From Paracoccaceae bacterium (GTDB taxonomy: Bacteria > Pseudomonadota > Alphaproteobacteria > Rhodobacterales > Rhodobacteraceae): 64,000 nucleotides of DNA. Of the stretch, positions 7,858 to 20,508 are shown in pieces (position 1 is the first letter of the stretch; each line of letters opens with the position of its first letter). The notes below the pieces were generated by a model, which was not told the origin of the DNA, ran no database searches, and was given only the letters and a program-made list of their open reading frames with translations. The position numbers were made by a program, and so were the translations under genes. The stretch spans positions 4,475 through 68,474 of the forward strand of contig JACONK010000026.1 of assembly GCA_014323795.1 (NCBI GenBank), written 5' to 3'.

Positions 7858-8530
7858 GGCGATGGCACGAACAGCATCTGTCTGCGGGACATCCCTCCGC
7901 AGCTCGTGTATGAATCGGACTTCATCTTCGCCTGAACCCTCGCAGGCTGAAATACACTCGGGGGCCATGCCGAAGGCGAGACACCCTCACGCACATCGAA
8001 AACCTGATTGGCACCGCGCAGGGCGATACGCTGACAGGCGATGACAAGGCGAACACCCTGGAAGGCGGTGCTGGCAACGATACGCTGAACGGCGGCGGTG
8101 GTGGTGACCTTCTGGACGGCGGTGCCGGGGATGACATACTGCGCGGCCAGGACGAAGCGGATGAGCTGGTCGGCGGTGATGGCAAGGACAGGCTGACCGG
8201 CCTGGGCGGCAATGATACCCTGACAGGCGGTGCGGGCCAGGACACGTTCATCTTCGATTCGGACGGCACCCACGACACCATGACCGTCTTTAAACCGGGG
8301 ATGGATAAAATCAGGTTCGCTGTTGATTATGTACGTGGGCAGGTGACCGAAGAAGACGGCGTTGCGATGATCATCTGGAATACCGCTTATCCGTCCGAAG
8401 GAGGGGAATTAAACAACAAGGTCACGCTTGAAGGCTTCACCGCCAAAAAAAGGCGCGAACGGTTCTGATCTCGAATTTGATTTGACAACAGGAAAATATC
8501 TGGTTCTAAATGAATCTATAGAAATGGCCT
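7858..8530 (+). pseudogene. Fragmented RTX/hemolysin-type Ca-binding repeat protein (type I secretion substrate) remnant
   Basis: GGHAEG|DTLTHIENLIGT and multiple GGxGxDxL nonapeptides in a frame with no start codon; C-terminal-type ...YESDFIFA* tip at 7858-7935; GA duplication at 7978-7981; A7 run at 8445-8451. Confidence 0.8.
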
Positions 8531-8648
8531 GACAAGCCCCGCCTCGGGCAGAAAGATGCGCATCCGGCCTGCGCCCTAATATATCCGGGGCCTGCCACAA
8601 GGGCCGGATACGGGGGCACCACCGCACGTATCGGGCACTAATCGGGCT

Positions 8649-8663
8649 TTAAATGCCGCTTAA
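8649..8663. promoter_or_regulatory. CtrA-box-like site
   Basis: TTAA-ATGCCGC-TTAA, exact TTAA-N7-TTAA in GC-rich intergenic DNA; no adjacent obvious target. Confidence 0.35.
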
Positions 8664-9034
8664 ACCGGTCTTTCTTTCACGGCACACGCCCATGCAAAAT
8701 CATTCCGCATCGGCAGACCTGATTACCACCCCACCAATATGCGCCGGGGATATCCTTGATTAACTGCTCCACACCCGATACAATCATGTAAGCTATGCCG
8801 ATGATTCGCGATCATGGTGTCCGGCGCAGACGCCTGCGCCAACGGATTCACAAAAATTTTCGCGGCGTTCAGCGTGATGAACCGGACGGTGGATGCGCTT
8901 GTGGCCCGCACAGGCCCTGACCCGCCGGCTTGTGCCGGTTGCGCACAAAACCGGATAGACGCCGGGGCCACAATCATCGGCAGCCGCCGCAAGGCCGGCC
9001 CGGCCCATAGCGCGAACCTGAAACGGAGGCCTGC

Positions 9035-9499
9035 ATGAAACTGTCCCCCCAGGCAATCACCACCATCGAAATGTGGCGCCTTGGTTTCGTGGCCACCGTC
9101 GGCACCGACGGGCGCCCGAATGTGAGCCCGAAGGGAACGTTTGTGGTGCTTGATCCGGAAACGATTGCCTTCGGGGAAATCCGGTCACCGCAGACGATCA
9201 CCAACCTGACAGCCAATCCGGAAACGGAGATTAACTTCGTTGACCAATTCACGCGCAAGGGGGTGCGTGTGCGCGGGCAGGCACAGATGGTGCCCCGCGG
9301 AACGGCGGAGTTTGACGGGCTGATCCCGCACTGGCAGGCGGGGTGGGGCGCACTGGCTGACAGGGTGAACATTATCGTCAGGATTCCCGTCGATCAGGCC
9401 AGACCTCTTGTCACACCGCCTTATGATGATGGCGCGACCGAAGAAGATATGATCGCCGCCTGGAAACAGAAATGCGCCGGGTTCTATCCAGGTGCCTGA
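9035..9499 (+). CDS. Pyridoxamine 5'-phosphate oxidase-like FMN-binding protein
   Basis: FVATVGTDGRPNVSPKG, NLTANP, KGVRVRG; GGAGG RBS. Confidence 0.85.
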   Translation: MKLSPQAITTIEMWRLGFVATVGTDGRPNVSPKGTFVVLDPETIAFGEIRSPQTITNLTANPETEINFVDQFTRKGVRVRGQAQMVPRGTAEFDGLIPHWQAGWGALADRVNIIVRIPVDQARPLVTPPYDDGATEEDMIAAWKQKCAGFYPGA

Positions 9500-9515
9500 G
9501 GCCGGAAACACTGAT

Positions 9516-11954
9516 ATGAACGTTCCTGCAAAAGCCCGCGCAGTCATCATCGGTGGCGGCATTGTCGGGGCGTCCGTCGCCTATCATCTGACGAAACTCG
9601 GCTGGACGGATGTGGTGCTGCTGGAACGAAAGGCCCTGACGTCGGGCACCACATGGCACGCGGCCGGGCTGATCGCGCAGTTGCGTGCAACGGCGAATAT
9701 GACGAGGCTCGCAAGGTATAGCCAGGAACTCTACGGCAGCCTTGAGGCAGAAACCGGGGTTGCCACGGGATTCAGACGAGTCGGCTCCATCACTGTCGCG
9801 TTAACCGCGGAACGAAAGGAAGAACTCTGGCGCGCCGCCTCCATGGCCCGGGCCTTCGGGGTGGAGATCGAAAAGATCAACTCCGACGAGGTGAAGCGGC
9901 GTTACGACCCCATCAATATAGACGGAGTAGTGGCTGGCGTTTACCTGCCCAGGGACGGGCAGGGGGATCCGGCCAACATTGCCCGTTCCCTCGCCAAAGG
10001 GGCGCGGAACCGCGGCGCACGGGTGATTGAGCGGGTAAAGGCAACGGGTGTGAACCGCACCGGCAACCGGATTATCGCCATTGCATGGGAGCATGAAAAC
10101 GGGGAATCCGGTCAGATTGAATGTGAACATGTGGTCAACTGTGCGGGCATATGGGGGCATGAAGTGGGGCGAATGCTCGGCACCAACATACCCCTGCAGG
10201 CCTGTGAGCACTTTTATATCGTGACCGGGCCCATCCCCGGCCTGCCGCAGCTGCCCGTGCTGCGGGTGCCGGACGAATGTGCCTACTACAAGGAAGACGC
10301 GGGCAAGATGCTTCTCGGCGCGTTTGAACCGGTCGCAAAGCCCTGGGGGCCGATCCCCGATGCCTTCGAGTTCGACCAGTTACCGGAGGATTTCGATCAC
10401 TTTGAGCCTATACTGGAGAAGGGTGTGAACCGGATGCCAATGCTCGAAAACGCGGGTATCCACACTTTCTTCAACGGGCCGGAGAGTTTCACTCCGGACG
10501 ATGCCTACCACCTCGGTCTTTGCCCGGGTATGGATAACGTGTGGGTGGCGGCCGGGTTTAACTCAATCGGGATTCAATCGGCCGGCGGTGCCGGGATGGC
10601 ACTCGCCGAGTGGATGGAAACAGGCGAAAAACCCTTTGACCTCGGCGATGTGGATATCACGCGGATGCAGCCGTTTCAGGGCAACAACAGCTATCTGAAG
10701 CACCGTGCGGCAGAGGTGCCGGGCCTGCTTTACGCTGACCACTTTCCCTTCCGTCAGAAGGCCACGGCCCGGGGGATCAGGCGAACGCCGTTCCACCCCT
10801 GCCTGGCCCGGTGCGGCGCGGTCTTCGGCGAGCTCGCCGGATGGGAACGTGCCAATTGGTTTGCTCCTGATGGCCGCAAGGCGGAATACGCCTACAGTTG
10901 GAAGCGGCAAACCTTCTTCGATTCTGTGCGCAAGGAGCATATGGCCGTGCGCCGGAACGTCGGCATGTACGATATGTCATCTTTCGGAAAACTGCGGGTG
11001 GAGGGGCCGGATGCGACAGCCTGCCTCAACTACCTGGCAGGCGGGCAGTATGACGTGCCAGTGGGCAAAATTGTCTATAGCCAGTTCCTCAATGCAACCG
11101 GCGGGATAGAGGCGGATGTGACCATCACGCGCCTGTCAGAAACCGCCTATCTGGTGGTAACGCCCGCGGCGACACGGCTGGCGGACCAGACATGGATGGA
11201 ACGCAACAAACGGGACTTTAATGTGGCGATTACCGATGTGACCGCCGCGGAAGGGGTCTTGGCAGTGATGGGCCCGCGGGCCCGGGATCTGCTAAAGGTG
11301 GTCAGCCCGAATGACTTTTCCAACCGGACAAACCCGTTTGGCACCGCCCGGGAAATCGAAATCGGCATGGGACTGGCACGCGCACACCGCGTAACCTACG
11401 TCGGCGAACTGGGGTGGGAGATCTATATCTCCGCCGACATGTGCGCCCATGTGTTTGAGATTTTGGCGGAGGCCGGGCAGGACTTCGATCTCGGACTTTG
11501 CGGGATGCACATGATGGATACCTGCCGGATTGAGAAAGGCTTCCGTCACTTCGGTCACGACATCACCTGCCAGGATCACGTGCTGGAGGCGGGGCTGGGC
11601 TTCGCCGTAAAGACGCATAAGCCGGATTTCATCGGGCGTGACGCGGTGCTGCGCAAGAAGGATGAAGGGCTGTCAACACGCCTTTTGCAGTTCAGACTGA
11701 CGGAGCCGGAGCCGCTGCTCTACCACAACGAGCCGATTTTGCGGGATGGGGAAATCGTGGGCTACCTGTCGTCCGGTGCCTATGGCCACGCGCTCGGGGC
11801 GGCTGTCGGCATGGGCTATGTGCCCTGCAGCGGAGAAAGCCCGGCGGATGTGCTCGCCTCCGGCTATGAGATTGAGGTCGCGGGCACCCGGGTGGTGGCG
11901 AAGGCAAGCCTGAAACCGATGTACGACCCGAAAGCGGAGCGGGTGAAGGTCTAG
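9516..11954 (+). CDS. GcvT-family FAD-dependent oxidoreductase (dimethylglycine/sarcosine dehydrogenase-like)
   Basis: IIGGGIVG, SGTTWHAAG, NGPESFTPD, C-terminal aminomethyltransferase domain. Confidence 0.9.
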   Translation: MNVPAKARAVIIGGGIVGASVAYHLTKLGWTDVVLLERKALTSGTTWHAAGLIAQLRATANMTRLARYSQELYGSLEAETGVATGFRRVGSITVALTAERKEELWRAASMARAFGVEIEKINSDEVKRRYDPINIDGVVAGVYLPRDGQGDPANIARSLAKGARNRGARVIERVKATGVNRTGNRIIAIAWEHENGESGQIECEHVVNCAGIWGHEVGRMLGTNIPLQACEHFYIVTGPIPGLPQLPVLRVPDECAYYKEDAGKMLLGAFEPVAKPWGPIPDAFEFDQLPEDFDHFEPILEKGVNRMPMLENAGIHTFFNGPESFTPDDAYHLGLCPGMDNVWVAAGFNSIGIQSAGGAGMALAEWMETGEKPFDLGDVDITRMQPFQGNNSYLKHRAAEVPGLLYADHFPFRQKATARGIRRTPFHPCLARCGAVFGELAGWERANWFAPDGRKAEYAYSWKRQTFFDSVRKEHMAVRRNVGMYDMSSFGKLRVEGPDATACLNYLAGGQYDVPVGKIVYSQFLNATGGIEADVTITRLSETAYLVVTPAATRLADQTWMERNKRDFNVAITDVTAAEGVLAVMGPRARDLLKVVSPNDFSNRTNPFGTAREIEIGMGLARAHRVTYVGELGWEIYISADMCAHVFEILAEAGQDFDLGLCGMHMMDTCRIEKGFRHFGHDITCQDHVLEAGLGFAVKTHKPDFIGRDAVLRKKDEGLSTRLLQFRLTEPEPLLYHNEPILRDGEIVGYLSSGAYGHALGAAVGMGYVPCSGESPADVLASGYEIEVAGTRVVAKASLKPMYDPKAERVKV

Positions 11955-12451
11955 GGACCACGCGGCAAAGAGGCATCGGAAGGCACACCCCGCAGATATT
12001 CAACAGGCCCGGGAACCACACGCATGGCCGCAGGCCCGTGGCGGGCACAGCGTTGTGTGATGGGGCACTTTCCTGGCGAACGCCTGCTCCCCGGAAGATG
12101 TTGTAAAAAGCCTGTGTTGGCAGGCTGACCGCCAGGAAATTTTCCCCTGACTCCCCCGCCCTCTTCCCTGACTCCGGCGAAACAGTCTGCACCGGCCCGC
12201 CTGTAGCAACCCCGTCACACACTTTTGTCATCTGCACCCGGACAAAAGAAAGAGGCCGCGTGATTAATCGGGCGGGGAACAGCTGCCTTGGGGTTCCCTT
12301 CTCCCGTCATCCGGCTATAGACAAAACCCTGAAAGATATTTCTGCCGCCACACCGGAACCGCAGCGCACCTGCGCCGGGGGCATGTCGGCGGCGGTTCCG
12401 CCCGGACAGGGGATGCTGTGATGGATACGGACAGGCAGCCTGGCAATATGC

Positions 12452-12550
12452 CAAAAAGACACGGCACCGTTCTGGCCCCGCTACGCAATCAGGGATGTCT
12501 GCGCACGTGCTGCGATTCTGGCGGTCTGCGTGGCCATCGTCGGTTCCATA
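12452..12550 (+). repeat. Degenerate 99-bp copy of an internal petB segment (19891-19989)
   Basis: Ungapped manual alignment, 84/99 identical. Confidence 0.85.
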
Positions 12551-12755
12551 GGGTTCAGCCAGTGGACGGTGTACCCGGCACGTCCGTCTGCCTGTGGCGC
12601 GGACACCTGCCCGCCCTTCCCGCACTGCTTTCAGGGCACCGTCAGCCGCGCCTTCCCGTCGCCCTCCAGCACTACTTATTTATAAACCGTACCGGATGGT
12701 ACCGCAAAACACACTCTTTTCATTCACATCCGGGCGAACAAACAAGGAGCCCGCC

Positions 12756-13898
12756 ATGGCCACCGACCCCGTAGAATTAACGCGCGCCCTAATCCGCTGC
12801 CCATCAGTTACCCCGGCAGAGGCCGGTGCCCTGACCATTTTGGAAAACCTGCTGGGCGACGCCGGTTTCGCCTGCACTCGGGTAGATCGCAACGGTATCC
12901 CAAACCTGTTTGCGCGCTGGGGACAAGCGGCAGATGGGCAGACTTTTGGCTTCAACGGCCACACGGATGTTGTGCCCGTCGGCGATGAAACTGCCTGGCG
13001 GTTTGACCCCTTCGGGGCAGAGGTCAGGGACGGCTGGCTTTACGGGCGCGGGGCCACAGACATGAAATCCGGCGTAGCCGCTTTTGCTGCAGCGGCTGTG
13101 GATTTTGTCAATGACACGCCGCCCGATGGATCTGTCGTGCTGGCGATCACTGGTGATGAGGAGGGTGTTGCCGCTGACGGCACGGTTGCATTGCTCGACT
13201 GGATGAAAGCGGAGGGAGAGCGCATCAACCATTGCCTGGTGGGGGAGCCAACCTGCCCGGAACAATTGGGCGAGATGATAAAGATCGGGCGCCGCGGATC
13301 CTTGACTGCTTTTTTCAACGCAATTGGTGTGCAGGGCCATTCGGCATATCCGCACCACGCACGCAACCCGGTCCCCGCCATGGCGGCCCTGATGGTGCAT
13401 CTGGCGGCGATAACGCTGGATGAAGGGTCCTGCGACTTTGGCCCCTCCACGCTTGCCGTCACCGCTATAGATACCGGCAACCCGGCCGACAACGTGATCC
13501 CGGCAGGCTGCCAGGCGACCGTTAATATCCGCTTCAACGACCATTGGCGAAGCGATCAGTTGATTGACATGCTGCGCGGTGCGGCCCGGAATATGGGGGC
13601 GACCCACGGTATCGGGTTCGAGATGACAACCCGGGTCAGCGGCGAGAGCTTTCTTACACCGCCCGGTGACTTGTCCGACCTCGTTGCAAAGGCTGTACAG
13701 GCAGAGACGGGCCTGTCCCCGGTTCTGTCCACCTCTGGCGGCACGTCGGACGCACGGTTCCTTAGAACCCATTGCCCGGTGGTGGAATTCGGGCTCGTCG
13801 GCAAGACGATGCATCAGGCGAACGAACGGGTGGAAGTGGCGCAGATCTACCGGCTCAAGGCCATCTACAGCCGTATCCTGCGGGATTACTTTGCGTGA
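12756..13898 (+). CDS. dapE: Succinyl-diaminopimelate desuccinylase
   Basis: [41 protein letters not shown]; AAGGAG RBS. Confidence 0.95.
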
Positions 13899-19179: not shown

Positions 19180-20508
19180 ATGGCCGGTATCCCCCACGAC
19201 CGCTATGAGCCCAGGACAAAATCGGAAAAATGGCTCCACCGCCGCCTTCCGGTCATCGGGCTTCTGTACGATACGCTGATGATCCCCACGCCCAAGAACC
19301 TGAACTGGATGTGGATATGGGGCATCATTCTGACCTTCTGTCTGGCATTGCAGATCATAACCGGCGTCGTTCTGGTGATGCACTACACGCCGCATGTGGA
19401 CCATGCTTTCGATTCGGTCGAACATATCATGCGCAACGTTAACGGCGGCTGGGCGATGCGATATCTGCACATGAACGGTGCCTCGCTGTTCTTTGTGGCC
19501 GTCTACATGCATATCTTCCGCGGCCTCTACTACGGCTCCTATAAGGAACCGCGTGAGGTGACGTGGATAATCGGCATGTTGATCTACCTGTTGATGATGG
19601 GCACCGCTTTTATGGGGTACGTGCTGCCTTGGGGGCAGATGTCCTTTTGGGGCGCGACTGTGATCACTGGCCTTTTCGGCGCAATCCCGGGCATCGGCGA
19701 AGTACTGCAAACCTGGCTGCTCGGAGGGCCGGCCGTAGATAACTACACGCTGAACCGCTTCTTCAGCCTGCACTATCTGCTGCCGTTCGTTATTGTGGGT
19801 CTTGTGGCCGTACACATCTGGGCCTTCCACACCACGGGTAACAACAACCCGACCGGGGTCGAGGTGCGCCGTGCATCAAAGGCAGAAGCGCAAAAAGACA
19901 CGGTACCGTTCTGGCCCTACTACGTAATCAAGGATCTCTTCGCGCTTGCCGTGATACTGGCGGTCTTCGTGGCCATCGTCGGTTTCATGCCGAACTACCT
20001 CGGTCACCCGGACAACTATATCGAGGCGAACCCGCTGGCGACACCGGCACACATCGTGCCTGAATGGTACTTCTTGCCGTTCTACGCGGTTCTGCGTGCG
20101 ATTACCTTCGACATCCTGTTCCTGGATGCGAAATTCCTTGGCGTACTCGCCATGTTCGGTGCCATCGCCGTGATGGCAATTGCACCGTGGCTTGATACGT
20201 CGAGTGTGCGTTCCGGCAAGTATCGCCCTATGTTCAAAGTGTTCTTCTGGCTTCTGGTTCTGGACTTCCTCATATTGACCTGGGCCGGGTCGCAACCGGC
20301 AGAAGGTATCGTTCCGCTGGTTTCGCTCCTGGGCACGATCTATTGGTTTGCGTACTTCCTGATCGTCCTGCCGCTGCTCGGCGTGATTGAGAAGCCGCTG
20401 CCGCAGCCTGAGACGATCGAGGATGACTTCGATGCACACTACCCGCCGGATATGAAAACTGACGGAACCCGCAGTGTCGGTGATGCGCAAGCGACCCCGG
20501 CTGAGTAG
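19180..20508 (+). CDS. petB: Cytochrome b
   Basis: [22 protein letters not shown] motifs. Confidence 0.97.

Follow-up and report, generated by a model that had tools for sequence, protein, structure and literature searches.

In this study, we find that a 99-base stretch resembling petB, located upstream of dapE in the window (the whole 64,000-nucleotide stretch of DNA analysed here), is very probably a non-functional mutational scar, a judgement that applies to the following explanation taken as a whole. A single copying event would have placed some 95–99 bases of the genome's own petB gene, located at a distance of 7.4 kb on the same strand, in the 3′ portion of a YHYH-family gene that ancestrally stood directly upstream of dapE. 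Afterwards, the patch and the remainder of the dead gene would have drifted without constraint, and a later deletion or rearrangement would have taken most of the YHYH gene along with two further genes, for an amine oxidase and an RluA-like protein. The features on which this explanation is built are collected in Table 1.

Table 1. Coordinates in the window of the petB-like patch, its source, its flanks and its neighbours.
Feature	Position	Strand	Basis and remarks
Remaining part of the putative deletion scar, 455 nt of unrecognisable origin	11955–12409		Synteny in the relatives G056, G054, G005 and G002
Left YHYH remnant, approximately residues 205–219 (...DG....WQYAK), frame 0	12410–12455	+	tblastn, shuffles, nhmmer
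CAAA microhomology at the left joint	12452–12455	+	Read directly from petB (GCG CAAAAAGAC) and the YHYH gene (GCC AAA GGG)
petB-derived patch, equal to petB codons 238–270	12452–12550	+	84/99 identity to 19891–19989
Right YHYH remnant, approximately residues 220–262, with small deletions and a 1-nt insertion	12551–12667	+	blastn, tblastn, HMMs
dapE (M20 peptidase), downstream neighbour and synteny anchor	12756–13898	+	Pfam Peptidase_M20 and M20_dimer; present in 50 of 55 genus genomes
Source segment within the intact petB (cytochrome b) gene, 19180–20508	19891–19989	+	Pfam domains on the 442-aa product

The similarity to petB had been pointed out in an earlier note made from the letters alone, and it stands as described there: 84 of 99 positions are identical, without gaps, on the same strand and at an offset of 7439 bases, with an E value of about 1e-22 in the genome (2.6e-22 and 5e-26 in two blastn searches of the 2.58-Mb assembly). 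When the 801-base spacer between the neighbouring genes was compared with its own genome by blastn, this was the sole significant similarity. Straight outside the 99 bases, identity is at background level; no petB homology was found beyond them on either flank, where gapped alignments scored as shuffled sequence does, and no second piece of petB was found elsewhere in the genome. If the four bases CAAA at the left edge are counted with the recipient, the inserted DNA proper comprises positions 12456–12550 (95 nt). The patch covers 33 of the 442 petB codons and is flanked by DNA from another gene, so that it does not represent a copy of a cytochrome b (PF00033) gene or pseudogene. The donor gene itself is intact; its product of 442 aa carries the Pfam domains Cytochrome_B, Cytochrom_B_N_2 and Cytochrom_B_C, and its neighbours are a Rieske gene on one side and a cytochrome c1 gene on the other. 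We also recovered the petB-frame peptides as they had been quoted, together with the upstream stop and the missing start: the reading frame of the patch opens after a TGA at 12419–12421, and no ATG, GTG or TTG occurs in the petB frame between this stop and the patch. Furthermore, the segment is real, as the spacer is base for base the same in four public assemblies (ENA ERZ23486280, JGI 3300017830, Logan SRR10406138 and SRR3667357), and since the patch is just 85% identical to petB, it is no assembly chimera of petB reads.

The spacer that harbors the patch is bounded by a gcvT-like gene (9492–11954) and dapE, and the patch had been regarded as intergenic. Comparison with relatives places it instead within a YHYH-family gene, at the 3′ end, which has decayed. 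A distance of 1.7–3.5 kb separates the gcvT-like gene from dapE in G056, G054, G005 and G002. The gap in G056 and G005 contains an amine oxidase gene on the opposite strand and, on the strand of dapE, an RluA-like pseudouridine synthase gene and a YHYH-family gene (PF14240) of 250–260 codons; in G054 it holds the RluA-like and YHYH genes, and in G002 the RluA-like gene alone was recognised. A full YHYH gene is present in 14 of 55 genus genomes and lies directly upstream of dapE in 13 of these 14. The Pfam model PF14240 gives no match in the genome studied here because the remnant is too short, whereas a custom HMM that we built from the 14 YHYH orthologues recovers it. What survives of the gene amounts to about 55 terminal codons in three different frames, that is, to a pseudogene remnant. 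The remaining 455 nt (11955–12409) occupy the place that in relatives is taken by the amine oxidase and RluA-like genes together with the 5′-most 620 nt of the YHYH gene; compared with those three genes and with the rest of the genome, they gave no significant similarity except for a weak match at C4:2039–2130. Altogether, the gene order in relatives indicates that the 801-base "intergenic" spacer is the leftover of three lost genes.

Several further observations concern the same spacer and the same gene families. Two other RluA-family genes persist in the genome (C26 46652–47326 and C10 15027–15752). In another species of the genus, the locus L027 (G017:C351, approximately 2398–2493) carries the last 32 YHYH codons alone, upstream of dapE, which suggests that the gene there either decayed independently or differs in its N-terminal part. 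On the minus strand of the spacer, 12317–12388 matches YHYH residues 216–238 at the protein level (E 0.05) and 12072–12116 matches the RluA motif HRLD..SG (E 0.04–0.09); neither match has support at the DNA level, and each may be either an inverted fragment of a lost gene or a product of chance. An imperfect palindrome of 47 nt, 77% self-complementary, occupies 12354–12400 just upstream of the left YHYH remnant. A long imperfect hairpin at 12062–12150, about 110 nt downstream of the stop of the gcvT-like gene, has fold z-scores of −2.8 (+) and −2.6 (−) and a single 70%-similar copy, which is intergenic (C4:2039–2130) and downstream of an RTX-repeat gene; this hairpin may act as a terminator or form a small RNA, or it may belong to a small repeat element.

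On both sides of the patch, the flanking DNA can be aligned with the YHYH gene of relatives. For the left remnant, tblastn pairs DGYGQAAWQYAK with DGTFVEDWQYAK; its last 16 bases, CTGGCAATATGCCAAA, agree with G056 at 15 of 16 positions, with a local score of 16 that was reached in none of 2000 shuffles, and nhmmer lists the remnant as its second-best match, collinear and on the correct strand. The right remnant is secure from 12576 (approximately residue 232) and plausible from 12551 (GGG...). Between 12576 and 12655, blastn finds 70–72% identity over 80 nt (E 9e-8 for G056 and 1e-7 for G054), the translation matches the conserved C-terminal motif of YHYH proteins (tblastn E 2e-5), and HMM searches give E values of 2e-4 with the protein model of the 14 orthologues and 1e-3 with the codon model. 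Both remnants are collinear and lie on the dapE strand, as the gene does in relatives. Upon removal of 12456–12550, the joint reads CTGGCAATATGCCAAA followed directly by GGG and the sequence of G056 reads CTGGCAATACGCCAAAGGG, an agreement of 18 of 19 positions across the joint that none of 5000 shuffles attained. Past the GGG the similarity is weak (TTCAGCCAGT against GCAGGCAAT) and becomes firm again from 12576; taken alone, the 25 nt that follow the patch show no significant likeness to YHYH.

With this in mind, we interpret the patch as DNA that entered the YHYH gene between codons K219 and G220. As YHYH-derived, collinear DNA is present on both sides, the inserted DNA can have measured at most about 120 bases, and because 95 bases are not a multiple of three, the insert would have broken the YHYH frame if the gene was still alive at the time. 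Recipient bases show no clear loss at the insertion site. An allele without the patch would be predicted to read ...TGGCAATATGCCAAAGGG..., and no such empty-site allele was seen in the collections searched, in which G056 is the closest relative (dapE 80% identical at the amino acid level). No relative closer than G056 was found, the best dapE match being 80% aa in genome contigs and 71% in metagenome contigs. The left joint carries the 4-nt microhomology CAAA. At the right joint, any microhomology would amount to at most 1–2 nt, and the joint itself is not resolvable past 1–2 bases because no close relative supplies the exact ancestral sequence of the recipient.

The petB genes of six relatives, aligned to the patch segment as outgroups, allowed us to address both the donor and the direction of change. 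The patch agrees with its own petB at 84 of 99 positions and with the outgroup genes at 61–66 of 99. Seven sites are common to the patch and its own petB and occur in none of the six outgroups, while no site points the other way; hence, the donor is the lineage's own petB, copied after the split from the outgroups. Eleven of the 15 differing sites have the petB base in the outgroup majority (six of six outgroups at 10 sites, five of six at one), and the remaining four, three of them third positions, are without clear polarity. Changes on the side of the copy would include ATG to ATA and all 11 differences at codon positions 1 and 2; two further sites, both of them third positions, would have changed in the source. 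Codon position 2 holds nine of the 15 differences (binomial p 0.03), and third positions differ at 4 of 33. The copy has thus taken up about 0.11 substitutions per site, similar to the value at third positions (4/33), a rate that would be expected of neutral, unconstrained decay.

The composition of these changes was inspected as well. Of 11 polarised AT/GC changes, 10 run from AT to GC (p ~0.02 against drift to 60% GC), an excess somewhat above simple drift to that value, and the GC content of the patch has gone up from 0.54 to 0.61, where it matches the spacer around it. The petB segment encodes a membrane helix and has T at 17 of 33 second positions; loss of second-position T after selection ended accounts for most of the substitution pattern. 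As to age, the petB third positions of this genome and of G056 differ at 48% (the G056 petB has ~80% nucleotide identity), and the patch event is much younger than that split. The insertion may have come before or after the death of the YHYH gene, and before or after the larger deletion.

Two routes may lead to such an insertion. A single-stranded petB fragment would anneal at a microhomology at the replication fork and be built in, as proposed for SPDIR, or the nascent strand would switch briefly to the nearby petB template and then return. We consider SPDIR or a transient template switch the most likely mechanism, and sequence cannot separate the two. SPDIR produces microindels of 3 to ~100 bp when intragenomic single strands anneal at microhomologies, and its outcome is usually deleterious or neutral (bioRxiv 10.1101/2023.11.22.568220). 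The patch resembles its products in being a short ectopic stretch from the same genome, here 95–99 nt from 7.4 kb away, that sits in an unrelated site with a microhomology crossover (CAAA on the left), an intact donor and collinear recipient flanks. There are also differences. SPDIR expects microhomology at both joints, whereas the patch has a clear one on the left and at best a minimal one on the right; the patch looks like a pure insertion and not like a replacement of recipient bases, and the annealing of a single strand is a step that we infer. Moreover, SPDIR is otherwise known from laboratory Acinetobacter baylyi, where it occurs at very low frequency, whereas the patch would be an old, fixed and decayed natural footprint in a marine, Rhodobacterales-like genome and not a laboratory-selected mutant. 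The SPDIR suppressors recA, recJ, dprA and recO are all present in the genome, and we accordingly rejected an SPDIR-prone genotype.

Template-switch insertions of the MMBIR/FoSTeS type (PMC5120786, PMC7954356) likewise involve a nearby copy in direct orientation, microhomology at the switch point and an intact donor. These models are mainly eukaryotic, however, and describe larger or much shorter-range events, and the patch has no demonstrable second switch or complex rearrangement.

Other origins were weighed against this copying route. If the YHYH gene had suffered a double-strand break, its repair by NHEJ or by microhomology-mediated end joining could have captured filler DNA and left the same sequence outcome, in which a short ectopic insert shows microhomology at one of its joints; the region has also lost several kilobases, which would fit repeated breakage. 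Yet neither Ku (PF02735), part of the Ku/LigD system expected for NHEJ filler, nor a reverse-transcriptase-type repair polymerase was found in the 98%-complete assembly, and the recipient seems to run on directly at either side with nothing lost to resection, a less usual result of end joining. As no Ku was found, end joining with filler becomes the less likely course, and we regard it as improbable. Orientation and distance, same strand and 7.4 kb, would also suit a decayed segmental duplication, of which the patch would be the last remnant while the rest of the petB or petABC-region copy was deleted or decayed, and the genome does hold other decayed partial gene copies. Such a larger event is very hard to reconcile with a petB similarity that ends sharply at both ends of the patch, with flanks that are both YHYH-derived and collinear and so limit the insert to about 120 nt, and with the lack of any second petB piece in the genome. 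The earlier proposal of a scar that is free of protein selection and stems from a past duplication hence holds for the scar itself and for a duplication of such a short patch, but not for one of petB or its operon at large.

The alternative that the patch is a retro-copy, also raised in the earlier note, gained no support. Its length of ~100 nt and scattered mismatches superficially recall the template and variable repeats (TR/VR) of a diversity-generating retroelement (DGR). The mismatches, however, are not adenine-specific, with at most eight of 15 on A of one petB strand and no mismatch at an A of the copy that follows the required pattern, and petB is a conserved housekeeping gene and not a variable target. 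No reverse transcriptase (PF00078) was found in the 98%-complete assembly, which makes any other cDNA copy of the petB mRNA less likely too. The mismatch types and the absent enzyme led us to reject the DGR reading, and to reverse transcription in any form we attach next to no credence. A short copy made by SPDIR or template switching is the origin that we prefer.

It might still be asked whether the patch has acquired a role, either as a minus-strand RNA acting in trans as antisense on the petABC mRNA or as part of a small protein encoded by an overlapping ORF. The patch indeed offers 99 nt that are 85% complementary to petB mRNA, with perfect runs of 13, 13 and 17 bases, and one public gene call falls on the plus-strand ORF, on a truncated contig. 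A trans-encoded antisense sRNA would be recognised by a promoter and a terminator and by conservation or structure above chance. Against such a role, a scan of both strands of 11800–12900 turned up neither a sigma-70-like promoter nor an intrinsic terminator, Rfam searches at a permissive threshold returned chance-level scores and no family, and RNA folding showed no excess over shuffled sequence (z +0.45 and +0.66 on the two strands). The earlier note had also suggested sister genomes as a check, and no counterpart was found there: 40 relatives did not yield the spacer, and the 55 genomes of the genus did not yield another piece of petB. Two ORFs overlap the patch, 12418–12774 (+) and 12215–12625 (−); they have no Pfam match, and their GC content by codon position is non-coding-like and atypical in comparison with the neighbouring genes; in the three public assemblies that hold the full context, neither ORF was called. 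The substitutions, too, are of the decay type. We thus hold a functional element of either kind to be very doubtful, and that a minus-strand patch RNA tunes the petABC (bc1 complex) mRNA in trans through these 99 nt of 85% complementarity would be just as surprising. If true, it would be a regulatory RNA born of a copying accident inside a dead gene.

The patch had further been proposed as a substrate for recombination with petB. RecA-dependent recombination needs roughly 20–30 identical bases, and the longest identical run between patch and petB is 17 bases; a role of this kind is therefore unlikely. The resulting deletion would take dapE, nhaA, rnr and petA and truncate petB.

The petB scrap is one of several decaying fragments in this genome. 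Self-comparison of the assembly revealed other two-copy matches of 100–250 nt and 79–84% identity, on contigs C11/C18, C17/C20, C10, C37/C34 and C15. In each pair, a copy in or beside a single-copy gene is matched by one in non-coding DNA, and the differences are spread evenly over codon positions; the genes concerned are a pncB-like gene, a type III R-M methylase, a 748-aa membrane protein, the start of acnA and the upstream region of fumC. Counted from source to copy at codon positions 1 and 2, six fragment pairs show 62 AT to GC against 31 GC to AT changes, with a polarity that is assumed and was outgroup-tested for petB alone. This surplus may be a sign that fixation is GC-biased where DNA is free of constraint. 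Multi-copy repeat families, for their part, make up 157.6 kb (6%) of the assembly, including 7858–8691 of the window; many of them are found at contig ends and next to genes for RTX-type repeat proteins, and they probably cause assembly breaks.

In summary, as a mutational scar the patch is ordinary and its kind is known, and it matters little for the biology of the organism. Its value lies in being a clean natural footprint of a rare type of mutation that is mostly known from laboratory selection: the sequence preserves the donor and the recipient, one joint together with its microhomology, and the neutral decay that followed. For annotation it carries a warning, since what is listed as an "intergenic" spacer is the residue of three genes that were lost. 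Finally, such scraps provide neutral substitutions in a small sample that is polarised internally; here, in a marine alphaproteobacterium of 59% GC, 10 of 11 polarised AT/GC changes run towards GC.
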